From the NCBI GenBank assembly GCA_963422375.2, contig OY729428.2:1824001-1888000 (forward strand): a DNA stretch of 64,000 nt, given 5' to 3'. Positions 24,525 through 63,036 of the stretch are shown piece by piece. Every line of letters begins with the position of its first letter. Position 1 is the first letter of the stretch. The notes under the pieces were generated by a model. That model saw only the letters and a list, made by a program, of their open reading frames with translations. It was not told the DNA's origin and did no database searches. This stretch comes from Bryobacterales bacterium (GTDB lineage Bacteria > Acidobacteriota > Terriglobia > Bryobacterales > UBA6623). A program made the translations under genes and the position numbers.

Positions 24525-25037
24525 CTAGTACACAGGCGTTCCGTAGGGGACGGGTGTTTCGACACGCCGGATATCGCCAACCCGGGCAATCTTCCAGTCG
24601 CCCGCCTGCCTTCGGAGATAGACCTCTTGGACTTCGTTCCGGTCGGCGTAGACGTACTCGACGCGGACCTCCGCTTCGTGGCCCGTTTGCTTCGGAGCGT
24701 TCATGGCGATGCCCTTGATGTCGCGATTGCGCTGCTTCAGGAACTCTGAGAAGCGCTCCGCGCCCATCTCCTCCAGGCTCTGTCGCAGCGTCCGCTCCAT
24801 CTGGCCCATGTAGCAGGCGAGATAGTCGTCGACGACGCCGTCTCGAGCCGCGTCGAGCATGGCGTAGATTACGTCCCGGGGCTCTGCCTTCCGGGATGAT
24901 CCCAAGCCCAAGAACCCGCCATCGTTGTCGGAGCCGCGCCGCAGGGCATCGAATCCGCCCTGGTTCCAAGCGATCAGCGCGAGTGCCGCCGCGATGAGCC
25001 CGATCGTGACGGACTGGGCCTTGGCGTCCTTGCTCAT
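24525..25037 (-). CDS. Small membrane-anchored hypothetical protein (NTF2/DUF4878-like C-terminus)
   Basis: One N-terminal TM; C-terminal AEVRVEYVY..LRRQAGDWKI; ATG overlaps the upstream hflK stop (ATGA). Confidence 0.75.
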   Translation of the reverse strand: MSKDAKAQSVTIGLIAAALALIAWNQGGFDALRRGSDNDGGFLGLGSSRKAEPRDVIYAMLDAARDGVVDDYLACYMGQMERTLRQSLEEMGAERFSEFLKQRNRDIKGIAMNAPKQTGHEAEVRVEYVYADRNEVQEVYLRRQAGDWKIARVGDIRRVETPVPYGTPVY

Positions 25038-26026
25038 GGAACGGCTGACCGGCCTGAGGCTCCCCGGCGGATCAGCGTGAGGTCGAGGTTGCCGCTCTCG
25101 TCCACGATCGTCTTGCGCAGGCGCGGCAGGACTTCCTCCATTGTCTCGAGGAAAAGGCGGCTTCGGGTGACCTCCGGGTTCCGCCGGTACTCGGAGGCGA
25201 GCCGCTCGAATCGCGCCGACTCGCCCTGCGCCTGCTGGATCTTGCTGACGCGATAGCCCTGCGAGGAAGAGAGCATCTGCTGGGCCTCGCCCCGGGCGCG
25301 CGGCAGGATGTCATTCGCGTAGCCTTCCGCCTCGTTGACAATGCGGGCGGAGTCTGCCCGAGCCGACGCTACGTCGCGAAACGCGTCCGCTGCTTCCGCG
25401 GGCGGCGTGACGGAGCGGATATTCACGGTTGACAGCGCGACCCCAAGGCCAAGGCGATCGACAAGCTCCTGAGCCCTGCGCCGGACCTCTTCCTGAATCG
25501 CGATCTTCTCGGTCGTCAGGACGTCATCGACCGAGCGCGTGGCGACTTGCCGTCCTAGAGCCGCCTCGACTGCATTCGCTACGGCTCGCTCCACGTCTCT
25601 GGAGCGGAACAGGTACTGCGCGGGATTGGCCACGCTGTACTGAGCGACAGCCCGCACGTTCAGGATGTTCTGGTCGCCCGTGAGGAACTGCGAGAGGACG
25701 GGATCCGCTGGAATGGCGTTTGCCTCGTCCGCGACCTCGCCTCCGATGAATGCTCGCTTGAGCTCGCGCACCTTGAGCTTGTAGACCCGCCCCACCGGCC
25801 ACGGGAAGTGCCATCCCACGCCAGGCGTGACCTCGTTGTCCGCCAGAGCTCCGAAAGTCGTGAGCACCGCCTGCTCCTCGGTCGGGACGACGTAGATGCC
25901 GGTCGCCAGCCAGATTGCGGCAAGGCCGGCTGCGACTTGGCGGCGCTTGCCGTCGCGAGCCCGGTTGGCCGCGGGCGCGCGGGCCGGCCTCTCCGAGGCT
26001 TGCTCCGGATGCGCGACATCGTGCAT
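25034..26026 (-). CDS. hflK: HflK-like SPFH (band 7) protein
   Basis: TM then GIYVV.TEEQAVLTTFG, PGVGWHFPWP, LTGDQNIL, AFRDV, EAEGYANDILPRARGEA, RLFLETMEEVL. Confidence 0.9.
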   Translation of the reverse strand: MHDVAHPEQASERPARAPAANRARDGKRRQVAAGLAAIWLATGIYVVPTEEQAVLTTFGALADNEVTPGVGWHFPWPVGRVYKLKVRELKRAFIGGEVADEANAIPADPVLSQFLTGDQNILNVRAVAQYSVANPAQYLFRSRDVERAVANAVEAALGRQVATRSVDDVLTTEKIAIQEEVRRRAQELVDRLGLGVALSTVNIRSVTPPAEAADAFRDVASARADSARIVNEAEGYANDILPRARGEAQQMLSSSQGYRVSKIQQAQGESARFERLASEYRRNPEVTRSRLFLETMEEVLPRLRKTIVDESGNLDLTLIRRGASGRSAVP

Positions 26027-26034
26027 GTTCTTGG

Positions 26035-27039
26035 TTACTGCCCCCGCGTCATGAGTCGCAGGAGTTCCGAATCCGCGCTGAGGATAACGGTCGTGTCCTC
26101 GTCCAAGGCCTTGCGGTAGGCCTCCAGCGTGCGCGTCAGTTTGTAGAAGGACTGATTCTTGGAATAGGCCGCTCCGTAGATCCGGGCCGCTTCGGCGTCT
26201 CCCTCGCCCTTTGTCGTCTCGGCCTCCTTGTACGCCTTGGCGAGAATCTCCTCGCGCCTGCGGTCCGCCTCAGCGCGAATGCGTAGCGCTTGCTCCTCTC
26301 CCTCGGCGCGGTACTGGCGCGCGATGCGCTCTCGCTCCGCCCGCATCCGGGCGTAGACGCTCTGCTTGTTCTGTTCCGGCAGGTTGAGCCGCTTCAGCCG
26401 CACGTCCACTACGCGAATGCCGTAGTCCTCCAAGGCTTCCGTGCCGCTCTCCTCGGCGAGCTTGTCGAGCACCTTCTCGGTCTTCGCGATCTCGGGGGAG
26501 ATCGACACGATCTCCTCTAGGTCCAGCCGTGCGATTGTCGCCGCCAAGCGCGACCAGACCAGGTCGTGAAGCCTCATCTCCGCCGCCCGCTCGTTGACCA
26601 CTGTCTTCACGAACGTCTCGGGGTCGGCGATCTGCCATAGCGCGTAGCTGTCGATGCTCAGGTTCTTCTTGTCCTTGGTCAGGAATTCCGAGCGGGGCGG
26701 GTTGTAGACCCGCAGCCGACGGTCGTAGAACCGGACTTGCTGGAGCCACGGGACCTTGACTCTCAGCCCCGCCTCGGTGACGGTGCGAATCGGCTTGCCG
26801 AACCGCGTCACGAAAGCGAACTCGCTCTCGCGCACGGTGAACAGTGTTGACCATGCCAGCAAGAGGCCGAGGAGCCCTAGGAGCCAGGTTCGGTGACGGT
26901 GCAGCGCTGCCCGCCAGTCGAAAGGCTGGCCGGGCGGGGGGGCGTGGCCGTGAGGACGGTGTCCCTCGTGGGCTTCGGAGGGATGGTCGCGTCCATGCGA
27001 ATGTGCGCGGCGACCGTGAGTGTGTTTGTGGTCGTGCAT
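26035..27039 (-). CDS. hflC: HflC-like SPFH protein with His-rich N-terminus
   Basis: FTVRESE..VTRFGKP, LTKDKKNL, VYARMRAERERIARQYRAEGEE, GEGDAEAARIY; 11 His in the first 32 aa. Confidence 0.9.
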   Translation of the reverse strand: MHDHKHTHGRRAHSHGRDHPSEAHEGHRPHGHAPPPGQPFDWRAALHRHRTWLLGLLGLLLAWSTLFTVRESEFAFVTRFGKPIRTVTEAGLRVKVPWLQQVRFYDRRLRVYNPPRSEFLTKDKKNLSIDSYALWQIADPETFVKTVVNERAAEMRLHDLVWSRLAATIARLDLEEIVSISPEIAKTEKVLDKLAEESGTEALEDYGIRVVDVRLKRLNLPEQNKQSVYARMRAERERIARQYRAEGEEQALRIRAEADRRREEILAKAYKEAETTKGEGDAEAARIYGAAYSKNQSFYKLTRTLEAYRKALDEDTTVILSADSELLRLMTRGQ

Positions 27040-27042
27040 GGC

Positions 27043-30000
27043 TTACTCGCCGACCTCGGGTATCTCGAACGGGGGCGGGGGCTGCTGCATCTGGCTCCCT
27101 TGCGGGGCCACCAGGACGCCGTCGTCGACCGTCCAGAGCGTGCGGCGCCCGCCCTGCGAGTCGATCACAAGCTTCTTCCGACCCGGCAGGATCTCCTCCA
27201 TGGTTTCTAGGTAGAGCCGCGTGGAGGTCGATTGCGGGGCGGCGCGGTACGCCGTCTCCAACTGGTTGAACCGCGCCGCGTCGCCGCCCGCCCGGTCGGA
27301 CCGGCTCGCCTTGTAGCCGCGAGCCGTCTGCACCAATGCCGCGCCCTGCCCCCGGGCCAGAGCGACCCGCTCGTTCGAGTAGGCCTCCGCTTCGTTGATC
27401 ATTCGATTCTTCTCCTCGAGCGCGCCGGCGACTTCCCGGAACGCGTCGACGACCTCGACCGATGGATGCATGTCCTGAATGTTGACGTGCAGGACGTTGA
27501 CTCCGCTGTGGTAGTCGGCTAGGAGCTGGTTCAGCTCGTCGGCCGCGCGCCGTTCCGCCCCGCGTCGCCCCGCGGTCAGCAGGGTGTCGAGGGAGACGGA
27601 ATTGACTACCGACCGCAGCGCCGCTTCGGAGGCAGCCCGGATTACCGTCTCCGGATCGACTTGCTGGAACAGGTAGTCATCCGGGCGCTCTATGTCGTAA
27701 TGCACCACCGCGGTCATCTCGATCATGTTCTGGTCGCCCGTCAGCATCAGGGTCTCCTCGTCCCTGAGCTGGATGCGTCCGTCCCGGTGCTGCAGGTTCC
27801 ATTCGTACGATGGAGGCTCGGTGAAGGTGCTGGTCGGCGACGTGCGGAATCCGATCTCGATAACGCGCACCTGTTTCGCTCTGACCTTCGTCACGCGGTC
27901 GACCGGCCACGGAGCCTTGAGGTGCAGGCCCGGCTCGCGATGCGGAAGCACCTTGCGTCCGAATCGCTCGATCACGCCCACTTCCTCGGTGCGCACAGTG
28001 AACGCGGAAGTTGACGCCCACGCCACGAGCAAAGCTGCCCCGGCGGGCTTGGCGAGCCTCCGGCGATTCTCGACGAGCCAGGCAAAGCCGCCGGCTGGAT
28101 CGATGCGGCTCAGGAAACCGACGACGGATTCCCACACGCGCCCGATACCCACAGCGCCCCAGAAGCGCTTCCAGCGGGTCACTTGCCCGGCGGGCCGCTC
28201 GATCCGCAGCAAGCGCACCGAGTTGAGCATCACGAAGATCGACGAGATCTGATGCACCCCCGCGGCGAGGGCGGGGCCCATCCAGCCCTTGCCCGCCACG
28301 TAGACGGCGACCACGTTCACGACGCCTGCGAACAGGATGATGTTCTGCCAGACGGTTGTCACCGCCTGGCGGGACACGCCAAAAAGCCTAGGCAGCTTGC
28401 CGATCTGCGTGTTCAGGTCGACCACATCGGCGGCCTCGGCCGCGATGTCCGCTCCGGACCCAGAAATCGCGACGCCCACGTCGGCTGCGGCCAGGGCTGG
28501 CGCGTCGTTCACCCCGTCCCCGATCATGGCGACCTTGCGGCCCTGGACCTGCAGTTGCTTGATGCGGTCGAGCTTCTGCTCGGGCAGCAGCTCGGCCTCG
28601 ACGTGGGTGATGCCGACGACCCGAGCCATCGCGTCCGCTGCCTTGCGCCGGTCCCCGGTCAGCAGGATGACGTTCGGGATGCCGAGATCCTCGATTTCGT
28701 GGATCGCACCGTGCGCGCCCGCCTTGGGGGTGTCGCGAAGGAGGATGGCTCCGGCAAACTGTTGGCCGTGCGCGACGAGCACCGGCGTTGCGCCCGCCCG
28801 GTCCGCCGCATCCAAGTAGTCCTTCAGGTTCTCGATGCCGTTCTCGGCAAGGAACGCCTCGTTGCCCGCGCGAATGACGCGACCTTCGTGGATGCATTGG
28901 GCGCCGCGCCCGGGGACGATCTTGGCGTCCTGCGACACCCCGGGGGGGATACCGCGCTCGTCGGCGCTGCGGACGATCACCTTGGCCAGCGGATGATCGG
29001 AGCCCGCTTCCGCCGTGGCGCCGAGAGACAGGACCCGCTCCGCGCTGTGGCCCTCTGCGGCCAGGACCTCGACAATCTCGAACTCGCCAGTAGTCAGCGT
29101 CCCGGTCTTGTCGAACACCACCGTGTCGATTTCGGCGGCCTTTTGCACCACCTGGCCGCCGCGAGCCAGAAGGCCCCGGCGGGCAAGGCCGCCGATGGCC
29201 GCGACCATGGCGGCCGGTGTGGCTAGGATCAGGGCGCACGGGCACGCCACGATCAGCACCGCGACGGCCCGGCGGACGCGCTCGGACGTCTCCACGTCGC
29301 TCGCTAGGAAGTAGACGGCCCCGGCAGTCAGCAGGATCGCGGGCAGGAAGTAGCGCGCGTAGCGATCGGCTACACGAACCACGGGGGCGGTGCGGTGGTC
29401 GCGAGCCTCCTCAACTAGATGGATGAGCCGCGCCAATGTCGAGTCGTCGCCTGCGTGCGTGACGCGGACGTGCAAGAGACCATGGCCATTGACGGTGCCG
29501 GAAAAGACCTCGTCACCGGCGGTCTTGTCGCGCGGGACCGATTCGCCCGTGATCGGGCTCTCGTCGATAGACGACTCGCCTCGCTCGACCACGCCGTCAG
29601 CGGCGATCCGCTCCCCGGCGCGCACGGCGATGAGGTCCCCCGGAACCAGATCCTCGACGTGTACCTCGACTTCCGTGCCGTCCCGCAGGACGCGCGCATG
29701 GTGCGGGAGCTGCTCGACGAACCGGTGGATCGCACGTTCCGTGCGCCCGGCTGCCCAAGCTTCTAGGCCCTCGCCTAGCAGCATGATGAACATCGCTTCG
29801 GCCGCGGCTAGGTACTCGCCGATGGCGAGAGCCGCTCCGGCGGCGATGACGATGGCGAGATCGGCCGAGATCCTCCGCTCGAGCAGCTCGGAAATGGCGC
29901 GGTAAAAGGTCTTGTAGCCTGCTAGAACGGCTAGGAAGATCGCCGTGTCGAAGCCGGCGACGGAATCGAAAATCCCTAATACGTTGAGGAGCAGGAGGGC

Positions 30001-30084
30001 GCCGACGACGGCAGTGAACCCTACGTACTTGATCTGCTCCCGCCGGTCGCGATTGATCGCGTGGTCTTCGGAGACAACATGCAC
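27043..30084 (-). CDS. P1B-type heavy-metal-translocating ATPase fused to a C-terminal HflK/SPFH domain
   Basis: ITGES, ACPCAL, DKTGT, SDHPLA and GDGVND motifs; then TM and VIERFGR..PGLHLKAPWP, LTGDQN, RLYLETMEEIL. GTG 30084 start inferred. Confidence 0.9.
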   Translation of the reverse strand: MHVVSEDHAINRDRREQIKYVGFTAVVGALLLLNVLGIFDSVAGFDTAIFLAVLAGYKTFYRAISELLERRISADLAIVIAAGAALAIGEYLAAAEAMFIMLLGEGLEAWAAGRTERAIHRFVEQLPHHARVLRDGTEVEVHVEDLVPGDLIAVRAGERIAADGVVERGESSIDESPITGESVPRDKTAGDEVFSGTVNGHGLLHVRVTHAGDDSTLARLIHLVEEARDHRTAPVVRVADRYARYFLPAILLTAGAVYFLASDVETSERVRRAVAVLIVACPCALILATPAAMVAAIGGLARRGLLARGGQVVQKAAEIDTVVFDKTGTLTTGEFEIVEVLAAEGHSAERVLSLGATAEAGSDHPLAKVIVRSADERGIPPGVSQDAKIVPGRGAQCIHEGRVIRAGNEAFLAENGIENLKDYLDAADRAGATPVLVAHGQQFAGAILLRDTPKAGAHGAIHEIEDLGIPNVILLTGDRRKAADAMARVVGITHVEAELLPEQKLDRIKQLQVQGRKVAMIGDGVNDAPALAAADVGVAISGSGADIAAEAADVVDLNTQIGKLPRLFGVSRQAVTTVWQNIILFAGVVNVVAVYVAGKGWMGPALAAGVHQISSIFVMLNSVRLLRIERPAGQVTRWKRFWGAVGIGRVWESVVGFLSRIDPAGGFAWLVENRRRLAKPAGAALLVAWASTSAFTVRTEEVGVIERFGRKVLPHREPGLHLKAPWPVDRVTKVRAKQVRVIEIGFRTSPTSTFTEPPSYEWNLQHRDGRIQLRDEETLMLTGDQNMIEMTAVVHYDIERPDDYLFQQVDPETVIRAASEAALRSVVNSVSLDTLLTAGRRGAERRAADELNQLLADYHSGVNVLHVNIQDMHPSVEVVDAFREVAGALEEKNRMINEAEAYSNERVALARGQGAALVQTARGYKASRSDRAGGDAARFNQLETAYRAAPQSTSTRLYLETMEEILPGRKKLVIDSQGGRRTLWTVDDGVLVAPQGSQMQQPPPPFEIPEVGE

Positions 30085-30119
30085 AAGTAGACAAAGATAC
30101 CAAACGCCCGCCGGGCGTT

Positions 30120-30343
30120 CAGTCGACGAATCGCCACGGGAAGTGGCCGCAGTCGGCGTTTCGCCACGCCAGTCGACGAATCGCCACGGGAAGTGGCCGC
30201 AGTCGGCGTTTCGCCACGCCAGTCGACGAATCGCCACGGGAAGTGGCCGCAGTCGGCGTTTCGCCACGCCAGTCGACGAATCGCCACGGGAAGTGGCCGC
30301 AGTCGGCGTTTCGCCACGCCAGTCGACGAATCGCCACGGGAAG
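30120..30343. repeat. Perfect 50-bp tandem repeat, 4 full copies plus a 24-bp partial copy
   Basis: Unit CAGTCGACGAATCGCCACGGGAAGTGGCCGCAGTCGGCGTTTCGCCACGC at 30120, 30170, 30220, 30270 and partial at 30320. Confidence 0.97.
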
Positions 30344-30561
30344 GGGCGGCGTCGAATTCGGCTAAGCTGGAATTTCGTTGGCGGCGCATCAGATTCGGTA
30401 TGGTCGCGATTCGACTCGGATCCAATGTCGGCCAGGACCGGCAGGCAAGCCATTCATTGCATTCACACTGCTAGGGCCCGGCCCCGCTCTGCCGCAGGTC
30501 GCCGAATCTCCAGTACCGTTCACGATGACGAGGCCATCCGCGCCCATCGTGAAAGTCTCGC

Positions 30562-32052
30562 ATGCACGGCAGGCATGAACGTCCCATAGGGCAAGCTTGG
30601 CTCAGGAGTCGGCTCGGCCTCTCTGTCCCGCTTCCTCAGACGGAATGCTATCTGGTTGCCGGCTCTCGACGAACCGAGACTGCCGGGGCGCGCACCAAGG
30701 AGTTCTATCCGCGACGGTATGGCTCGGACGATTCGGTCGTATCGCACATCAAGTTCGCATTTCGCCACGAGCCGCTGGATCTTGGTGTCTTAGCGGCTGC
30801 ATTCAAGGCATTGGATGCGGCCGAGCTTGAGGCTTGGGTGAGGGAAGAACCGTTTGGCAAGTTCAGCAGGCGCGCATGGTTTCTCTACGAGACGTTTTCC
30901 GGGATGACTCTCGATCTAGAGAACGCGCACGTCGGTGACTATGCCGATGCCTTGGACCGACGGAAACAGTTTGTCGGACCCGCCCGAAGATCCCCTCGGC
31001 ACCGGGTTGTGGACAATCTCTTGGGAGTTGCCGGTATGTGCCCCACGGTCAGGCGCACGGAGCGGCTGTCACATGCGATGAACTCGCGGGTTGACAGAGC
31101 CGCCCGGGCACTCGTCGAAGGCGTCTCTCCCGCGGTTCTCGCCAGAGCTGTCAACTTTCTGTATACCGAGGAGACTCTCTCATCTTTCGCGCTCGAGGGT
31201 GAGACTCCAAGCGCATCGCGCAGCCAGCGATTCGTCGCGGCACTCAGGGCCGCGCCCGCATTCGACCCCGCGGACAAGGCCGCGCTGACTGACCTGCAGG
31301 GAATGATCGTTGACCCCCGCTACCGGGCCGATGGCTGGCGCGACGTTCAGAACTTCGTGGGGACGACTCGTGCCGGATTCCGCGACCGCGTGGATTTCGT
31401 CTGCCCACGGCCCGCGGACGTAGCTGGCCTCATGGAGGCTTGGATGACCCTGACACGGCGCGTTGTGGACAGCGATGTCGATCCGGTCGTGGCGGCGGCT
31501 GTGGCGGCTTTCGCGTTCGTCCTGATACACCCGTTCGAGGACGGGAACGGCCGCATCCACCGATTCCTCGTCCACCACGTCTTGGCGAAGCGGAAGTTCA
31601 GCCCTCCAGGAGTCATCTTTCCCGTCTCGGCGGCGATTCTGCGCGACAGGCAAGGCTACAGCGCGGTGCTCGAATCGTTCTCTCAGGCGATCCTTCCTTT
31701 CGTCCGCTGGTACATGACACCCGAAAGGGCGGTAGTTGTCGAGAACGATACCGCCGATCTCTACCGCTATTACGACGCTACGGCATTCGCTGAGTTCTTG
31801 TATGACAAGGTTGGAGAGACAGTCAGCAAGGACTTGGAGGAGGAGATTGGTTTCATCGACGTCTTCGACCGGGCGTTCGAGTCGGCTCGCGAGATCGTTG
31901 ACATGCCGGACCGCAAGGCTTCCCTGTTCGTCCGGATTTGCATGCAGAACGGCGGGACGCTCGGTAGGAGCAAGCGGAGCAAGTTTTCCGAACTGGATGA
32001 CGCGGAGGTCGCGGCGATGGAGACGGCCGTCCGCAATGCGATGAAGCGCTGA
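30562..32052 (+). CDS. Fic family protein
   Basis: Canonical HPFEDGNGRIHR motif; ETLSSFALEGE and RHRVVDNLLG motifs typical of long Fic proteins. Confidence 0.92.
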   Translation: MHGRHERPIGQAWLRSRLGLSVPLPQTECYLVAGSRRTETAGARTKEFYPRRYGSDDSVVSHIKFAFRHEPLDLGVLAAAFKALDAAELEAWVREEPFGKFSRRAWFLYETFSGMTLDLENAHVGDYADALDRRKQFVGPARRSPRHRVVDNLLGVAGMCPTVRRTERLSHAMNSRVDRAARALVEGVSPAVLARAVNFLYTEETLSSFALEGETPSASRSQRFVAALRAAPAFDPADKAALTDLQGMIVDPRYRADGWRDVQNFVGTTRAGFRDRVDFVCPRPADVAGLMEAWMTLTRRVVDSDVDPVVAAAVAAFAFVLIHPFEDGNGRIHRFLVHHVLAKRKFSPPGVIFPVSAAILRDRQGYSAVLESFSQAILPFVRWYMTPERAVVVENDTADLYRYYDATAFAEFLYDKVGETVSKDLEEEIGFIDVFDRAFESAREIVDMPDRKASLFVRICMQNGGTLGRSKRSKFSELDDAEVAAMETAVRNAMKR

Positions 32053-33897: not shown

Positions 33898-36800
33898 TCA
33901 GCCGCCCTGCAGGCGCGCTTGGTCGAGCACCCACTCGCGAATCACTTGGTAGCTGGGGTCGTCGGGCTCGTAGCGCACGCCTCCCTGATGTCCGTCCTCC
34001 TCGCCCGACTGGATGTTCAGGGGCTTGCGCAGGAACTTGCTTCGCTCTACGTCGTGCAGGTCCACGCGCTGCTGCATGCGGCGGTAGTTCCCCAGAAGCG
34101 CCTCCGGTGGAATGTAGCCCGCGGCGTCCGGAGCCTCTAGATACAGCGTCGGCACGCGGCCCGGCACGCCGTGGCATGAAATGCAGGCGCGGTTATCTCT
34201 CGGGTCGATCCGGGTCAGCTCGGTGAAGACGTAGTCGCGGAAGCGGATCAAGTCGGCGATCCACTCGTCCGAGTCGCCGAGCGGACGGACTTCGCCCGAC
34301 TGCTGCTCGGCACTCTGCTCCCGGATGAGACCGCGTAGCCGCCGACCGTAAATCTTGTCGTCGCTGTTGAGAATATTCTCGATGCGCGTGCGGTAGACCG
34401 GGCTGGGCTCGTGTTCGAACCAGGCGCTCAGGGCCTTGAGCACTTCCGGGTGGCGTCGCAGGGCGGTCTTGTTCGCTAGGTTGATCGCCTGCTTGCGCAC
34501 GTCCTCCGGCGTGTCCGCGGAGAACCAGGATGTGAACATTCCGACGAGCCGGTCCTTGGCTTCGACTATCGGGTCGATCACGTCGATGCCGAGATCGTCC
34601 TTCGTGAAGAGAGAGCCCGAGCTCTCGCCGGGCACGAGCTTTACGTAGTCCAGCCCGAAGATGTAGTTCTTCTCGGCGTCCAGGTTGGCCCCCGTCATAC
34701 GGAACCCGAGGCGGTTCGCGCCGGCCTCGAACTGGTGGACGCCGAGCGACACCGGTCCCGGGGCCGTCAGGTCGGGGCGGTAGTAGTCGATCGGATCGCC
34801 GATCGGATCGCCGTTCAGGACGGGCTGGACGATCCCCATCTCGCGGTCGTGGAGAAACGCCGCGACGATCTCGTAGGGCCCGGCCTCGGGCGCCTCGACC
34901 CCGAATTCCAGGCGGTCTCCGGGCAAGCCCTCGCGCCACCACAGGATGGTGTTGCGGCTGGTCAGGCCGTCCGGCACCAGCTGCTCGGTGGTTCGCCCCC
35001 CGGACAGCTCCAGGACCGTCAGCTCTTCCGCCTCGGTCGCGCCCTCGACTGCGTCCTCGAGGGCCGGGCCGCCTTCCTGGAATCGCAGCATCCATTCGGT
35101 CGAAGGCAGCCAGAAAAGCGCGTCCCCGCCGACGTGGTCGAAGGCCGCCCGGCGGTGGAGCGAGGGATTGGCCCCCAGCACCGTGCCCAGCAGCGTCGCG
35201 CGCTCGCTGCGGACGGCGGCGCTGTCCTCAGCGGATGGCGCCGGCCGGCCCAGAAAGCTCGACACGGCCGCTACCGGCCTCGCCTCCTCGCGGGGAACGA
35301 GCAGATCGAAGAAATCCCGCTCGGCGTCGGCGTCGCCCTCCGGGAACTCCCACCGGACCCTCGACAGGAACCGCACCAGCGCATCGGCGTCGTCCCTGCG
35401 CCCGGTCGCCAGGAAGGCGTCGAGCTTGGCGAGCAGCGGGCGGATCGTGTTCCGCGAGGCGCTGAGCCGCAAGGCGCTCGGGTTGGCTAGGGCCTTGGCC
35501 GCGGCGGCGACCTGCTCGAGGTCGTCGCTTTGCAGCAGGCCTAGAAGGTGCTCTTGCAGAGGCAGGAAGTTGACGTTGGCCGCGCCCTGCAGCGCGATCG
35601 ACTGCCAAGGGGCCGCCCCGCTGTCGTCGCGGTCCCGGTACACACTCAGAAGGATGTCGCCCAGCAGCTGCGTGGCGCCGGGCGTCGAGTAGCCGAGCTG
35701 GCCAGGACCGCCGTCGTTGCCGCGCTCTTGGAAGTGCGTCGCTGCCACCGCGGCCAGCCGCTGCTCGAACAGGTCCCGGCGGTCCCCGGCGCCGCTCCGG
35801 GCGGAGGCCAGCATGCGGTACAGATCCTCCAGCTCGCGGTACTGCTGCTCGCGGTTGCCGACGCCAGTTTGGTTCGCGATCTGCCCGTTGACGATCAGCA
35901 GCGAGGCGGTGGAGTAGCGCAGCGCGTTCTCGGCGTGGGCGCTGGCCTCCTCGGTCAGCAGCGCCCGCACCCAGGCCTTGTTGATGCGCTGGCGCAGCGG
36001 CGGGTTCCAGACCCACCAGTGCCACGCTGCCTTGAAGGCGTAGGCCCTGACTCCGGCGAAGGGGTCGCGCATGGCCCGGGCGAGGAGATCCGCGAGCGCG
36101 TTGCGGTCCGCCTGCGAGCCAGGTCCGACTAAGTCGACCCGCATCACCAGCGCTTGCAGGAGCGACTGCCGCGTGCGCTCGTCGCCGCTCCGGTAGGCCG
36201 CGAACACAGCGGGCCAGCCTTGATCGTCGATCAGCAGCTGGCGCAGCGACCAGAAGGCAGCCTCGCGGCAGGCCTTGACCGGGTCGGAAAGCCCCGTCAC
36301 CAAGGCCGGGATTCCGCTCGGCGCGAGCGCGCCTCCCAAGCCGAGGTAGGCGAAGTAGCGCACTTGGGGCAGCGGGTCGTCCGCGACGTCCAGCATCAGG
36401 TCGGCTAGGTCGGCCCGGCCCGTCGATTGCAGGGCGCGCACCCGCGACAGCCTCTCTAAGGGCGTCTCGCCCGGGAGCGGCTCGAAGTCGCTCCGCTCGA
36501 ACGGCTTGGCGTCACCCGGGAAAAGCCTGCTCAGTGCCCGGACCACGTAGGCGTTGGTCACGAATCCGGTCTGGGCCGACCGGTTCCACAGGCCGTATTC
36601 GAACTGCGCCCGCAGCAGCCAGTCGACAGCCCGCCGGACCGGCGGGCTGTCGGGGCCGTGCCCGGCCGCTCGCAGCGCGAGCAGCGCGACCGCCGTCGGA
36701 GCGGGATCTCCCGGCTCGTCGATGCGGGACCACGTGTCGGCGGATTCGTCGTGGACGCCGAGATCGAAGCCCCACGAGCCGTCTTCCTGCTGCAGCGCGA

Positions 36801-38742
36801 GGAGCCGGCGGAGGTCTCGCCCGACTTGGCGCTGGAAGCCGGGCAATAGCTCGGCATAGCGCTTGCCGAGTTCCGATGCGGGATCCAGCTCCGCAAGCTC
36901 GCTGCGAGGCAGCAGGTCGTGGAAGAACTCGATGCGGTGGCCCAGATCGTCGGAGACCTTGATCTGCACGTCCCCCGTCGACACGATCTTCTCGGCCTTC
37001 TCGAGTACGCCCGCGAGGTATCTCTCCTCGCCGCTGTCGCGCCAGGCGCGCTCGAGGATCTCGGCGGCGAACTTGAACACGACGTTGGGGCCGAAGTTCG
37101 ATCCCTTGCCTGCGGCGTTGATTCCCCCCGGGTCGGCCGTCTGCAGCACGTAGTTGGCGGTCCTGCGCTGCTGGTAGGAGTGCAGGCGCTTCGGCTCGAA
37201 CGTGCGCTCGTGCAGCACGACGTTGCGTCCGGCGACGCGGCTCCCGGCCGGGGCGTCGCCCAGATCGTTCGGCGCGAGCGAGGTGTTGACTGCCGCGTCG
37301 ACCAGGTGGTTGGTCGGGCGCAGGCTCTCGTACATCGTGTTGACCAGGCGGCGGTGATTCTGGATCGTTCCGTCGGGCCGGTAGCCGTGTCGCAGCGCGT
37401 CGGCTACGCCCCACACTCCGCTCTGCGTGTGGCAGCTCATGCAGTTCTCGCCGAAAAGGCTCGATCCGTCCCGCACTCGCCGATGGACGGCGATATTCCT
37501 GGGGCGGTGGATCAGCCACGCGTCGATCTCGGCTAGGTGGTAGTAGATGGATTGCTTGAGAGCGCGCTGGGGCGTCTCGTAGGGAGCCGGATCCACGAGC
37601 CGGACCTCCAGCTCGTAACCGGGCTGGTTCGCTTCCACGCGCAGGAAGTAGGTCCCGCCCGGCTGGACCCGACGCGTCACGAACGAGCGGAAGTTGTCGT
37701 CCTGCTGGTGAATCCTCTCATTGACGTCCCGGCCGTCGTAGTAGGTGTAGACCGGTACCGGCCCCGGGATCGCCTCGGTGTCCGGGTGGATGTAGGGGAC
37801 GGCGTTGTTGTTTCCGAAGTCCTCTCGCTGGGCCGCCTTGCGCGGCTTGAGCTCCTCCGGTGTCGGGACGCCCGGCTTATAGATGCGGATCCTGGCGCTG
37901 ACGACCGGGTCGGGCAACTGCAGGTTCGCCGTGAACAGCTTGACGCGGTCGCCGCGATACTCCAGCCGGTACCAATCGTCCGGCGACCTGCCGGAGTCGG
38001 CGTTGTCGAAGTACTCGAGGTCGTCGGCCCCGCCTACCACGCGCAGCACTTGGTCGCCGCTGCCCGGCAGGAAGGGAAGCTTGACGGCGTGCTCGGGCTC
38101 GTTGTTCGGCTCGGTCTCGAGAACGATGTCGCGGGCCTGGGTGGCCTCCACCAAGTCGACGTCGACGCGAATCTCGGCGCCTTGGATTGGGGGTGTTCGG
38201 GTCGGCTTGACCGCGGCGAGGGACGCGAGTCCCGTGTCGCGGTGGTACTGCGACAGAGCCTGCTCGCGGTTCACCACTGTCTCGAGCCGGAGCTCGTACC
38301 GTCCGGGAACGGGGGCCCTGTACAGCAGGTACACGTCTGGGTCGAGGGCGTGGAGGATCTTCGTCCACCCGTTGTCTATGCCGGTCACTAGGTCGCCGCG
38401 CCGCTCGGGCCCAGCCGTGTCGTCCGTGGGCGGGCCGCTCCAGCGGGCCTCGATCCTGGCGTTGTCCGGGAGGCGGCCCGGGCTCACGATGCCGACTCGG
38501 ATCTGCACCGTCTGGAGGGACTCGAGGTCCCACGCCTTGGACCACGATCCGTTGAATTCAACGGTCTCCCCTGAAGCCCGCGCCGGAGCGAGACAGCACA
38601 ATGCGGCCGCGACCAACACGGCCGGGCCGATGCCGAACGATGAGTGGCTCGCTGCGGGCCTGCTCCGACACTCAATGGGCGCTCCCTCGAGCGCCGGGCG
38701 CGGGATCGAATGGCAAGCAGAGAGAAGGCTTCGTATCGGCAT
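33898..38742 (-). CDS. Giant secreted multidomain protein (PPC-like, CxxCH, QW-like repeats, HEAT repeats, jelly-roll, C-terminal CxxCH)
   Basis: 1614-aa ORF with host codon usage; ETEPNN, CMSCH, LQQEDGSWG, AQFEYGLW, DPLPQVR/DPVKACR HEAT-like units, CISCH. Start uncertain. Confidence 0.85.
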   Translation of the reverse strand: MPIRSLLSACHSIPRPALEGAPIECRSRPAASHSSFGIGPAVLVAAALCCLAPARASGETVEFNGSWSKAWDLESLQTVQIRVGIVSPGRLPDNARIEARWSGPPTDDTAGPERRGDLVTGIDNGWTKILHALDPDVYLLYRAPVPGRYELRLETVVNREQALSQYHRDTGLASLAAVKPTRTPPIQGAEIRVDVDLVEATQARDIVLETEPNNEPEHAVKLPFLPGSGDQVLRVVGGADDLEYFDNADSGRSPDDWYRLEYRGDRVKLFTANLQLPDPVVSARIRIYKPGVPTPEELKPRKAAQREDFGNNNAVPYIHPDTEAIPGPVPVYTYYDGRDVNERIHQQDDNFRSFVTRRVQPGGTYFLRVEANQPGYELEVRLVDPAPYETPQRALKQSIYYHLAEIDAWLIHRPRNIAVHRRVRDGSSLFGENCMSCHTQSGVWGVADALRHGYRPDGTIQNHRRLVNTMYESLRPTNHLVDAAVNTSLAPNDLGDAPAGSRVAGRNVVLHERTFEPKRLHSYQQRRTANYVLQTADPGGINAAGKGSNFGPNVVFKFAAEILERAWRDSGEERYLAGVLEKAEKIVSTGDVQIKVSDDLGHRIEFFHDLLPRSELAELDPASELGKRYAELLPGFQRQVGRDLRRLLALQQEDGSWGFDLGVHDESADTWSRIDEPGDPAPTAVALLALRAAGHGPDSPPVRRAVDWLLRAQFEYGLWNRSAQTGFVTNAYVVRALSRLFPGDAKPFERSDFEPLPGETPLERLSRVRALQSTGRADLADLMLDVADDPLPQVRYFAYLGLGGALAPSGIPALVTGLSDPVKACREAAFWSLRQLLIDDQGWPAVFAAYRSGDERTRQSLLQALVMRVDLVGPGSQADRNALADLLARAMRDPFAGVRAYAFKAAWHWWVWNPPLRQRINKAWVRALLTEEASAHAENALRYSTASLLIVNGQIANQTGVGNREQQYRELEDLYRMLASARSGAGDRRDLFEQRLAAVAATHFQERGNDGGPGQLGYSTPGATQLLGDILLSVYRDRDDSGAAPWQSIALQGAANVNFLPLQEHLLGLLQSDDLEQVAAAAKALANPSALRLSASRNTIRPLLAKLDAFLATGRRDDADALVRFLSRVRWEFPEGDADAERDFFDLLVPREEARPVAAVSSFLGRPAPSAEDSAAVRSERATLLGTVLGANPSLHRRAAFDHVGGDALFWLPSTEWMLRFQEGGPALEDAVEGATEAEELTVLELSGGRTTEQLVPDGLTSRNTILWWREGLPGDRLEFGVEAPEAGPYEIVAAFLHDREMGIVQPVLNGDPIGDPIDYYRPDLTAPGPVSLGVHQFEAGANRLGFRMTGANLDAEKNYIFGLDYVKLVPGESSGSLFTKDDLGIDVIDPIVEAKDRLVGMFTSWFSADTPEDVRKQAINLANKTALRRHPEVLKALSAWFEHEPSPVYRTRIENILNSDDKIYGRRLRGLIREQSAEQQSGEVRPLGDSDEWIADLIRFRDYVFTELTRIDPRDNRACISCHGVPGRVPTLYLEAPDAAGYIPPEALLGNYRRMQQRVDLHDVERSKFLRKPLNIQSGEEDGHQGGVRYEPDDPSYQVIREWVLDQARLQGG

Positions 38743-43694: not shown

Positions 43695-44598
43695 TATGGC
43701 TAAATTATATCAAATTCTCTGGTCGAGAACTTCGCCATCATCTCTTCAAGAATCACTCGGTTCCTGCCAACTGTAAGTCCCTTTACATTCTCGAAGACAA
43801 ACGTACGGACGTCCAATTCGACGATGATCCTGACAAAGTCGTTTACCAAGAGATTCCGTGAATCTTCTAGTGTCCGTTGGCCGATTAGCGAGAATCCTTG
43901 GTACGGAGGGCCGCCGAATACACAATCTGCTGTACGGTTCCCAATTCCCGAGAGATATCTGATGATGGCGCCGGAAAGGTCTTCGACAGGTCGAGCTATC
44001 ATTGAGGTCGCGGGAAAATTGAACTTGTGGGTAGCACAGCGTACAGGGTCTACCCCGACCGCGGCGGCTATATCGAAGCCTGCCTGCTCAAACCCTAGAG
44101 CCAAGCCACCCGCACCCGCGAAGAGGTCAATGCCAAGTGGACGGACAGTGCGAACGTCTAAATTCGCAGGATGGGGATCGATTAGGGAATTATATATCTG
44201 AGTGCCGACAACGCCATATCCGACTAGAACTGCTGTGAGCAGGGAGGTGGGTGTCGAGCTGGGGTCATGCGAGTGCGGCCGCGGGCGGGCACAGAGGGGT
44301 GGGGTGTGGGATCGTATCTGAATCGAGCCTGCCAGCGGATTGGACGAGGAAGGGACTAGAGAGGCCGCCTCGCATGCCCCGGTGGAACCCGGTTGGCGGT
44401 GGCAGGGCACGCCTTGCAAGCCGCTTGCAGGCCCTGCGAGGGCCGAAGACAGCGGATCCCCGGCGCTCGACGGCCTGCATGGACGGTCCGGACCGGACCG
44501 GGGTCGCGCCGGGGCATGCCGGATCCGGTGCGACCCTCGTACCGAGCGTGAAGCGCGCGCCCGCAGCGGGCTGCCGCGCTCGGCGCGGCGGGCGCCGC

Positions 44599-45550
44599 TC
44601 AGGCCGCGACCGCGGCCTGGCCGGTCAGCTGCCGGCAGGTCAGCGTCCGGCCGACCAAGCCCCGCGCCATGCGCCGCATCCGTTCCGCCGTGTCGCAGTC
44701 GCGGTCGTTGCGCCGTCCCGCGAACTCCGTGAGGTAGCGGCCGAGATGACGGACGCTCATCCGGTGATAGGTGCCGTACAGGCCGCGCTTGAACAGGGAC
44801 CCAAACGACTCGATGCCGTTCGTATGCGCTGCCCCGCGCACGTACTCGCCGCCGGAGTGCCTGACGGCTTCGTGCGCGAACTCCGCCATGCCGGCGCAGG
44901 CCGCCGCCTCGTCGGAGCGGAGCTGCGCCCCCGGCGCGGGCGCGCACGAAGCCCTGCAGGTCGCCCTTGGCGGTGCCCGGCAGCGGCCGCGCGGCCACTG
45001 CGTTCGTGGCGCGGTCGCGCGCCCCCGCCACGGGCGTCTTGCCGACGGGCCCGCGCCCGGCGCGGGCCTTCTTCCTCTCGTGCTGGTTGCGTTCCTTGCC
45101 GCCGACGCAGGTCTCGTCCACCTCCACCGGGCCGGCGAACAGGCCCCGATGCCGCTCCCGGCACGCGCGGATGCGGTGCGCCAGGTGCCAGGCCGACTTC
45201 CGGCTGACGCCCGGGTCGCGGTGCAGCTTCATGCTCGAGACGCCCTTGATGCCGGTGGTCAGCAGGAACAGGGCGACGGCCCGGGTGCGGTAGCCGAGCT
45301 CGGTGTCGGCCATCACGCTGCCGGTGCGCACCGAAAAGCGCTTGCCGCAGCCGCGGCAACGGTACGGCATCGAAGGGTGGGCCGCGTCGGACTGCACGCT
45401 GGAGCCGCGGCAGCGGGGGCACGCAGGACCGTCCGGCCAGCGCATGGATGCGAACCACTTTTCCGCGGATTCGTCATCGGGGAACATGGCGATCACTTCG
45501 ATCATTGTGATGCCTTTACGGAACCACTTTCCGGGACCTTGTTTCTTCAT
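44599..45550 (-). pseudogene. IS1595-family transposase, frameshifted
   Basis: CPRC..CRGC ribbon and VEVDET; 5 bp shorter than copy 2 near 44940; C-terminal HTNGIESF..RYLTEF lies in another frame. Confidence 0.9.
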
Positions 45551-62155: not shown

Positions 62156-63036
62156 ATGAAGAAACAAGGTCCCGGAAAGTGGTTCCGTAAAGGCATCACA
62201 ATGATCGAAGTGATCGCCATGTTCCCCGATGACGAATCCGCGGAAAAGTGGTTCGCATCCATGCGCTGGCCGGACGGTCCTGCGTGCCCCCGCTGCCGCG
62301 GCTCCAGCGTGCAGTCCGACGCGGCCCACCCTTCGATGCCGTACCGTTGCCGCGGCTGCGGCAGGCGCTTTTCGGTGCGCACCGGCAGCGTGATGGCCGA
62401 CACCGAGCTCGGCTACCGCACCCGGGCCGTCGCCCTGTTCCTGCTGACCACCGGCATCAAGGGCGTCTCGAGCATGCAGCTGCACCGCGACCCGGGCATC
62501 AGCCAAAAGTCGGCCTGGCACCTGGCGCACCGCATCCGCGCGTGCCGGGAGCGGGATCGGGGCCTGTTCGCCGGCCCGGTGGAGGTGGACGAGACCTGCG
62601 TCGGCGGCAAGGAACGCAACCAGCACGAGAGGAAGAAGGCCCGCGCCACGAACGCAGTGCCCGCGCGGCCGCTGCCGGGCACCGCCAAGGGCGACCTGCA
62701 GGGCTTCGTGCGCGGCCGGGTCGCGCCGGGGGCGCAGGTCCGCTCCGACGAGGCGGCGGCCTGCGCCGGCATGGCGGAGTTCCCGCACGAAGCCGTCAAG
62801 CATTCCGGCGGCGAGTACGTGCGCGGGGCAGCGCATACGAACGGCATCGAGTCGTTTGGGTCCCTGTTCAAGCGCGGCCTGTACGGCACCTATCACCGGA
62901 TGAGCGTCCGTCATCTCGGCCGCTACCTCACGGAGTTCGCGGGACGGCGGAACGGATGCGGCGCATGGCGCGGGGCTTGGTCGGCCGGACGCTGACCTGC
63001 CGGCAGCTGACCGGCCAGGCCGCGGTCGCGGCCTGA
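62156..63036 (+). pseudogene. IS1595-family transposase with two internal deletions
   Basis: Relative to copy 1: a 51-bp in-frame deletion near 62647 and a 25-bp frameshifting deletion near 62949. Confidence 0.9.

Follow-up and report, generated by a model that had tools for sequence, protein, structure and literature searches.

A 64,000-nucleotide stretch of the genome of a Bryobacterales bacterium (contig OY729428.2, positions 1,824,001 to 1,888,000; hereafter the window, from whose first letter positions are counted) carries, between 24525 and 30084, four co-directional open reading frames (ORFs) on the minus strand. The first of them encodes a P1B-type metal-transporting ATPase joined in a single frame to HflK, and it is followed by hflC, by a second hflK and by a small gene. 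The fusion is confirmed and is kept together with its partner genes, and it is probable that such clusters encode a scaffold, of whatever kind, dedicated to metal transporters rather than to FtsH. How the scaffold acts on the pump is a matter of graded probability, and the possible mechanisms are weighed below beside the data that bear on them.

An ATPase::HflK fusion conserved with its partner genes

The fusion gene (27043..30084; 1013 aa, GTG start) is separated by 3 bp from hflC (26035..27039; 334 aa, with a His-rich N-terminal tail before the anchor helix), which lies 8 bp from the second, free hflK (25034..26026; 330 aa, with a short C-terminus); the latter overlaps by the 4 bp ATGA (−4) the small gene (24525..25037; 170 aa), whose product is predicted to consist of an N-terminal membrane helix, a flexible linker and an NTF2-like domain. 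All these features, and those of the fusion described below, are on the minus strand. Pfam recognised E1-E2_ATPase, Hydrolase and Band_7 in the single frame of the first ORF, which scored above the NCBIfam cut-offs both for the heavy-metal P-type ATPase (563 bits vs 346) and for HflK (218.5 vs 159.4); the second ORF exceeded the HflC cut-off (TIGR01932) and the third the HflK one (TIGR01933). The ORFs, gaps and families of this tight operon are thus those described in the initial annotation of the window, and its remark that no ftsH or hflX lies nearby also holds, as neither family was matched by any of the 31 window ORFs scanned. The longest open frame of the fusion extends to 30453 through a 50-bp tandem repeat; this start was rejected, since the homologs have about 1013 aa and begin at the equivalent of 30084, and the extension crosses a strain-level repeat.

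A stop between the ATPase and SPFH domains would have separated the two proteins, and none was found: independent assemblies are unbroken across the junction. In fact, the letters of the operon were identical in contigs of three public runs from two studies, with none changed, missing or added, and one contig of the second study covers 25106-29277, thus crossing the ATPase/HflK junction; from a fourth public run, available as raw reads, no sequence was placed on the operon. When the C-terminal 453 residues were used as query, 805 proteins were retrieved, and nearly all of the best 120 combined ATPase and Band_7 domains. Clustering at 50% identity left 61 full-length fusions among the best 150 representatives, and the source names of the fusion matches span three phyla, Acidobacteriota, Planctomycetota and Elusimicrobiota; the named relatives at 63-88% identity belong nearly throughout to Bryobacterales. 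Homologous fusions and synteny were therefore found elsewhere: the fusion is intact in 47 of 52 Bryobacterales loci, with hflC and hflK downstream in 47/47 and the small gene in 46/47. The five remaining loci comprise two with a frameshift in the gene, one truncated and two at contig ends. Such interrupted copies are what might be expected of an assembly or annotation artefact, or of a neutral read-through fusion, an explanation that we rejected and consider extremely improbable in view of the identical independent assemblies, of the many full-length homologous fusions in three phyla and of the conserved partners.

In a sample of 301 genomes of the phylum a fusion-length frame was present in 16, counting this genome, and all 11 inspected among the other 15 were the fusion followed by hflC and hflK. 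The 301-genome tallies include three genomes flagged as unpublished (G146, G048, G023), on which no fusion, permease or tree row depends. Neighbour clustering over 66 loci showed synteny at the lineage level only, and a metagenome scan with alignment returned mostly generic ATPases, with SPFH genes at 2 of 79 loci. Proteins resembling the product of the small gene fall into clusters mostly from Acidobacteriota; the small gene is absent from one fusion locus (L125), and neither the permease and CDF versions described below nor the unfused one showed it. Since it is not present in all versions, the small protein is considered accessory.

The pump, its topology and the Trp-x3-His loop

The ATPase part (28207..30084, aa 1-626) shows eight predicted membrane helices and the motifs TGES, DKTGT, HP and GDGVND, and can be classified from its residues as a P1B-type ATPase with complete catalytic motifs, CPC and the helices MA, MB and M1-M6; it has no N-terminal metal-binding domain. 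In the alignment of 148 fusions, both cysteines of the CPC metal motif (C281-P-C283, 29236..29244), D325 of the DKTGT phosphorylation motif (29098..29112), E108, and H611 of the HQISS motif in the last ATPase helix (28240..28254) are invariant, N590 is kept in 147 and E96 in 132. Moreover, E90 (136/148) and E105 (137/148) have the spacing of E202 and E217 of ZntA (PMC4285229).

The best folds for the ATPase part of the AlphaFold model were CopA and ZntA. Membership of the described classes was examined motif by motif. P1B-1 was rejected, because the pump has QN and HQISS instead of the Tyr-Asn in transmembrane helix 7 (TM7) and the Met...Ser in TM8 reported for CopA (PMC4285229); the only other P1B pump of the genome is a CopA with YN and MxxSS. 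P1B-2 was rejected as well, as the Lys in TM7 and Asp in TM8 reported for ZntA (PMC4285229) are absent and the fused pumps branch apart from the ADxG pumps. The CPC motif, in place of SPC, excluded P1B-4, and the absence of SCA and HNxxT excluded the P1B-6 pump FezB. The nearest described signature of the CPC/Asn/His site appears to be that of CtpC, a zinc exporter grouped with P1B-6 and reported to have CPC plus N-x18-H-N-x-(S/T) (PMC13460109); in the fused pump it reads N-x20-H-Q-x-S-S, CtpC being known here from its described motif. Because the two signatures differ, the metal of the pump is inferred rather than assigned.

The ATPase is followed by a linker (28066..28206, aa 627-673) of short helices, predicted to be cytoplasmic, and by the HflK part (27124..28065), with the anchor helix (aa 674-691), the SPFH domains, a long helix and terminal strands. 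The AlphaFold monomer of the fusion (mean predicted local distance difference test, pLDDT, 82.5; predicted template modelling score, pTM, 0.59) reproduced the eight ATPase helices, the helical linker, the anchor helix and an HflK-like body. With an even number of ATPase helices, the linker comes out on the cytoplasmic side and the SPFH part, as it does in HflK, on the periplasmic one. This predicted topology fits a tether in which the C-terminus of the pump is in the cytoplasm and is connected through the linker and the HflK anchor helix to the periplasmic SPFH part; in the model the pump head and the dome would lie on opposite sides of the membrane, with no clash. A complex prediction with the ATPase (aa 12-628), the small protein and the fused SPFH part (aa 670-880, the part scored) gave a score of 0.00 with controls not folded, and weighs neither way on assembly.

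Just after the position of E. coli R141/E142, the fused HflK contains an inserted loop of about 30 aa with Trp762-x3-His766 (27787..27801). W762 is conserved in 146 and H766 in 144 of the 148 aligned fusions, while loop length and the other residues vary freely. The motif was found in 67/72 P1B fusions and in none of 11 linked HflK, 10 stand-alone HflK and 3 permease fusions; the free HflK of this operon lacks it too. It was also missing in the CDF fusion and in 7/7 further readable permease fusions (of eight, one was partial and not counted, and in one of the seven W-x3-H occurs by chance in the strand before). By contrast, it occupies the aligned place in 6/6 unfused first subunits linked to a P1B gene. 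Being present in P1B-linked subunits, fused and unfused, and not in permease or CDF fusions, the loop follows the type of pump and not the fusion. We propose the Trp-x3-His loop as a new candidate mark of the P1B-partnered HflK subunit, sited where E. coli HflK touches FtsH: R141, E142 and R185 of E. coli HflK are reported to be needed for full FtsH binding (PMC13220708), and the SPFH domains with these residues to contact FtsH inside the chamber (PMC12048511). The residues themselves are R/V/R in the fusion and K/R/A in the second HflK, and other canonical HflKs vary as much; the C-terminal tails have 26 and 10 aa here vs 63 in E. coli, stand-alone acidobacterial HflKs being short too. FtsH-contact residues and tail length were therefore discarded as discriminators. 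Since the monomer model is only moderately confident at the loop, no docked position is given for it.

A probable scaffold kit for metal transporters and the direction of transport

The P1B pump is not the only cargo. In three genomes (G041, G025, G007) the arrangement X::HflK-hflC-hflK was found with an SO_0444/ArsP_1 permease as X, and eight more permease::HflK copies (L204-L211) form a second three-SPFH operon in genomes of the window's own family; at least three of the permease versions adjoin ORFs that, read by eye, resemble TolC and membrane-fusion efflux genes. A ZIP-like gene was also noted beside permease::HflK operons of this second set. On an Aquibium plasmid (L121:6367-16798) X is a CDF, and after CDF::HflK-hflC-hflK come genes for a PPIase, a ZntA-type pump, PCu(A)C, SCO and DsbB. 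In Proteobacteria (L122-L124, L212, L213) and in a metagenome contig (L129), X is instead an unclassified membrane domain and a pump with CPC...His is a separate gene downstream. In L129:1120-11902 the order is membrane-domain::HflK with the loop, hflC, hflK and P1B pump, followed by ABC-type ATPase and permease-like genes, while the P1B gene of the Burkholderia sp. FXe9 cluster (L213:10932-12881), unannotated in its record, loses its frame near the 3' end. Two stand-alone hflKC pairs on plasmids (L093, L095) directly precede Na+/H+ or cation:proton antiporter genes, a hint at further transporter-linked SPFH pairs.

The subunits of these clusters were compared with canonical ones by phylogeny. 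In a maximum-likelihood tree of 25 HflC proteins, 13 transporter-linked and 12 canonical or stand-alone rows split at 99/99, and the split holds for the stand-alone copies from genomes having both kinds. A separate lineage was thus obtained for HflC, whereas the HflK side was weakly resolved.

This distribution bears on a first alternative, namely that the operon encodes ordinary FtsH-modulating HflKC and that, through the fusion, the pump is tied to FtsH so that its turnover can be regulated. In the host genome, which is 96% complete, the operon holds the only HflK/HflC genes, the single ftsH is on another contig, both HflK-type chains pass the HflK cut-off and the fused domain retains the equivalents of R141 and R185, as would be expected of a service to FtsH. 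However, HflK was found in 68 of 151 genomes of the order, always with 2, 4 or 6 matches, and in the other 83 it was missing, and FtsH was kept in all five HflK-less relatives tested; thus, within the order, FtsH manages without HflKC, and HflK is gained and lost together with the transporter. In addition, four other fusion-carrying Acidobacteriota (G182, G187, G218, G245) keep a separate stand-alone hflKC pair, the transporter-linked HflC forms its own lineage and the long insertion falls at the FtsH-contact site. We consider this alternative quite unlikely. The same gene content corrects the idea, put forward in the initial annotation, of a paralogous cage around the pump with the fusion as its tether: the fusion, the topology and the separate HflC lineage agree with it, but the cage is not paralogous within this genome, because the operon genes are the sole HflK/HflC genes there.

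A second alternative keeps the scaffold and assigns it no role in metal hand-over: the SPFH ring would cluster and stabilise the pump, or shield it from proteolysis, the loop being a docking patch. PacL, which has a His-rich metal motif, is reported to cluster and stabilise CtpC-type pumps (PMC13460109), and the kit is common to three unrelated transporters, two of them without the loop. Such a role would leave unexplained the near-invariant Trp and His (146 and 144 of 148) in an otherwise variable loop, in fused as in unfused clusters, and we regard it as rather unlikely.

The mechanism that we favour, tentatively and at somewhat less than an even chance, is a dedicated HflK/C-type chamber into which the pump exports a divalent metal, with hand-over to the loop. 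The fused HflK, the HflC of the operon and the second HflK would co-assemble into a periplasmic chamber, by analogy with the E. coli structures, and the pump would export a divalent metal, most probably zinc, into this sheltered periplasmic space. Here the Trp-x3-His loop may face the lumen and receive the metal, its position being directly after the residues with which E. coli HflK contacts FtsH within the chamber. On the cytoplasmic side, the His-rich tail of HflC, with 11 His in its first 32 residues ahead of the anchor helix, could replace the missing N-terminal metal-binding domain and feed the pump; such a tail is present in 51/64 loci, and also in several unfused clusters. Export is favoured because the scaffold otherwise carries transporters of efflux families, CtpC works as an exporter, the His tail lies on the cytoplasmic side and no ZntA-type exporter or CDF was found in the 96% complete genome, where one ZIP and four NRAMP importers and the CopA are present. 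The genome also has two heavy-metal RND pumps over the cut-off and one Fur-family regulator.

The purpose of the system would be housekeeping, with metal exported steadily and passed on to proteins of the periplasm, and not inducible detoxification. An extended −10-like element, TG-n-TATCTT, lies at 30094..30102, 9 nt before the GTG start, and in 51 of the 52 related loci TG-n-TATnnT stands some 9 nt ahead of the start, likely marking a leaderless or near-leaderless promoter. In a search for operators, including one of the Zur type, nothing beyond the extended −10 was seen by inspection to be conserved in the 52 upstream regions, and a simple palindrome scan of 5 unfused clusters gave no conserved operator. 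A conserved extended −10 with nothing else upstream points to steady, leaderless expression.

The same chamber could also work in the opposite direction, the loop capturing scarce periplasmic Zn or Cu and the pump importing it. In the P. aeruginosa locus PA2439-hmtA, which shares the gene order of the unfused clusters, PA2439-PA2437 and hmtA are reported to be up 5.6-14-fold in a znuA mutant (PMC4542158), the proteins of the locus to be up under Zn depletion (PMC11761036), Zur to bind the PA2439 promoter (PMC8531726), and HmtA to take up Cu and Zn (PMC8456098, PMC11923076), having raised the Cu content in E. coli (PMC11923076). One unfused cluster adjoins a metal ABC transporter, and a search of this genome for ZnuA/MntC-type binding proteins gave none. 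On the other hand, few genomes of the order have ZnuA, and its occurrence shows no relation to the fusion (5/68 carriers vs 6/83 others), so that the anti-correlation looked for as a test of import was not seen; the permease and the CDF carried by the same scaffold belong to efflux families, the His-rich tails are cytoplasmic, hmtA mRNA was reported not to be repressed by Zn in one study, and HmtA was assayed without its SPFH partners. We consider import unlikely, and export only the more probable direction, since HmtA is reported as an importer.

Several observations weigh against the export chamber with loop hand-over. One is HmtA itself, encoded in the same gene order, reported to import Cu and Zn and belonging to an operon bound by Zur and induced by zinc starvation. 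The pump signature departs from that of CtpC (N-x20-H-Q vs N-x18-H-N). In the ATPase tree 12 of the 13 fused pumps sampled group on a single branch (99), and fused and unfused pumps are separate 99-supported groups not joined as sisters; the HflK tree (41 rows, 8 omitted) agrees with that of HflC in outline, with weak support. The His tail of HflC is missing in four fusion lineages (L099, L100, L102, L104), and the retained R141 and R185 equivalents belong here as well. The pLDDT of the loop is 52-55 in a model of pTM 0.59; a single His gives little ground for proposing a metal site, and the loop may be a docking element only. Finally, a link to secreted metallohydrolases is a lineage-confounded correlation. 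CehA/McbA metallohydrolases were rejected as a requirement of carriers, the family being in 246 of the 301 phylum genomes, including all 16 carriers. In one family (f1) the candidate count, a crude and kin-confounded proxy, had a median of 31 in 57 carriers vs 9 in 15, and in another (f2) a match was present in 5/9 carriers vs 19/68 non-carriers (p 0.13); metallohydrolase genes flank the cluster in four loci (L034, L099, L104, L107) and not in this window, and the link remains a weak lead.

In its broadest form, which we find doubtful, the hypothesis would describe a widespread periplasmic nanocompartment for metal handling, in which P1B pumps, SO_0444 permeases and CDFs have replaced FtsH by independent fusions and the loop, placed in the lumen, accepts metal from the pump and passes it to secreted metalloenzymes; the HmtA locus would be its unfused form, and the 'importer' behaviour of HmtA would come from a cage-less assay.

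Neighbouring genes and comparison with known systems

Upstream of the operon, between its promoter and a Fic gene, the 50-bp tandem repeat (30120-30354; 4.7 copies, 98% identity) occurs nowhere else in the genome, is supported by the read depth in three runs and was not seen upstream in the related loci displayed. The Fic-family gene (30562-32052, plus strand) is inserted between the operon and an AMP-binding gene, which is the direct divergent neighbour of the operon in close relatives. Further on, a 1614-aa protein (33898-38742, minus strand) with HEAT repeats, a weak squalene-hopene cyclase C-terminal match and CxxCH motifs is conserved next to the AMP-binding gene in 23 related loci. In a 616-aa single frame (43700-45550, minus strand) an IS1595-type transposase is fused with a fragment of a C5 DNA methylase, and a second IS1595 transposase lies at 62156-62995.

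A full-text literature search, with most subscription papers and supplements outside its scope, brought up no publication that deals with a P1B::HflK fusion or with an HflK/C cage for a transporter. The initial annotation knew of no experimental description of such a system; this holds for the fusion, but the unfused PA2439-PA2434/HmtA locus has been published as a locus of zinc starvation, with its HflK/C genes annotated near hmtA and, as far as the available text of these papers goes, in that form only, with no cage interpretation (PMC4542158, PMC11761036, PMC8531726). The fusion bears on the role of bacterial SPFH cages for clients other than FtsH, as a covalent client offers a genetically defined, purifiable complex of cage and transporter, and point mutations of W762 and H766 could separate a scaffold role from metal hand-over. 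The fusion also suggests how the Zur-bound PA2439-hmtA locus, so far uninterpreted, may be read, and gives a reason to re-test, together with its partners, the one P1B pump reported to import metal.

The closest known system is in fact PA2439-PA2434 of P. aeruginosa, with the HflK-family PA2439, the HflC PA2438, the SPFH protein PA2437 and the P1B-ATPase HmtA/PA2435. As in the window, three SPFH genes (long HflK, HflC, HflK) accompany a CPC/His P1B-ATPase in clusters of the PA2439 type, the pump being fused here and separate there; unlike the fusion, the first HflK of PA2439-type clusters carries an unclassified membrane domain. The available text describes a zinc-linked, Zur-bound operon with a reported importer and proposes no cage role. 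The proteobacterial clusters and the metagenome contig described above share the PA2439 gene order and have CPC...His pumps, often His-rich HflC tails, and the Trp-x3-His loop; the pumps of L122-L124 are 35-36% identical to that of the window, and the tie of clusters of this type to PAO1 PA2439/PA2435 is by gene order and names.

The mycobacterial CtpC/PacL1 effluxosome resembles the operon in its CPC plus Asn/His signature, in the absence of a CxxC domain, in a His-rich scaffold partner and in forming a membrane platform (PMC13460109). It differs in that the scaffold is the small, cytoplasmic-side PacL and not an SPFH protein, the pump is unfused and there is no periplasmic chamber; SPFH, HflK and flotillin are unmentioned in the available part of this effluxosome review (PMC13460109). 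Similarly, the ferrosome clusters of FezB (P1B-6) share the lack of an N-terminal metal domain, the last-helix His and compartment-forming membrane proteins (10.1101/2020.01.10.902569), but the SCA and HNxxT motifs of FezB are not those of the window pump and its clusters, as described in the available text, are without SPFH proteins.

As for the scaffold, the E. coli FtsH-HflK/HflC complex (PDB 7VHP, 7WI3, 9CZ1/9CZ2, 9PAW) has the same families and the same predicted fold, and no other PDB entries matched the sequence of the fused domain (E 4e-45); its HflK and HflC are reported to form a periplasmic chamber of alternating subunits (PMC12048511). Unlike that complex, the operon described here encodes three SPFH chains, one of which covalently carries its client and has a loop inserted at the FtsH-contact site, with no link to hflX or ftsH and with an HflC of a separate lineage.

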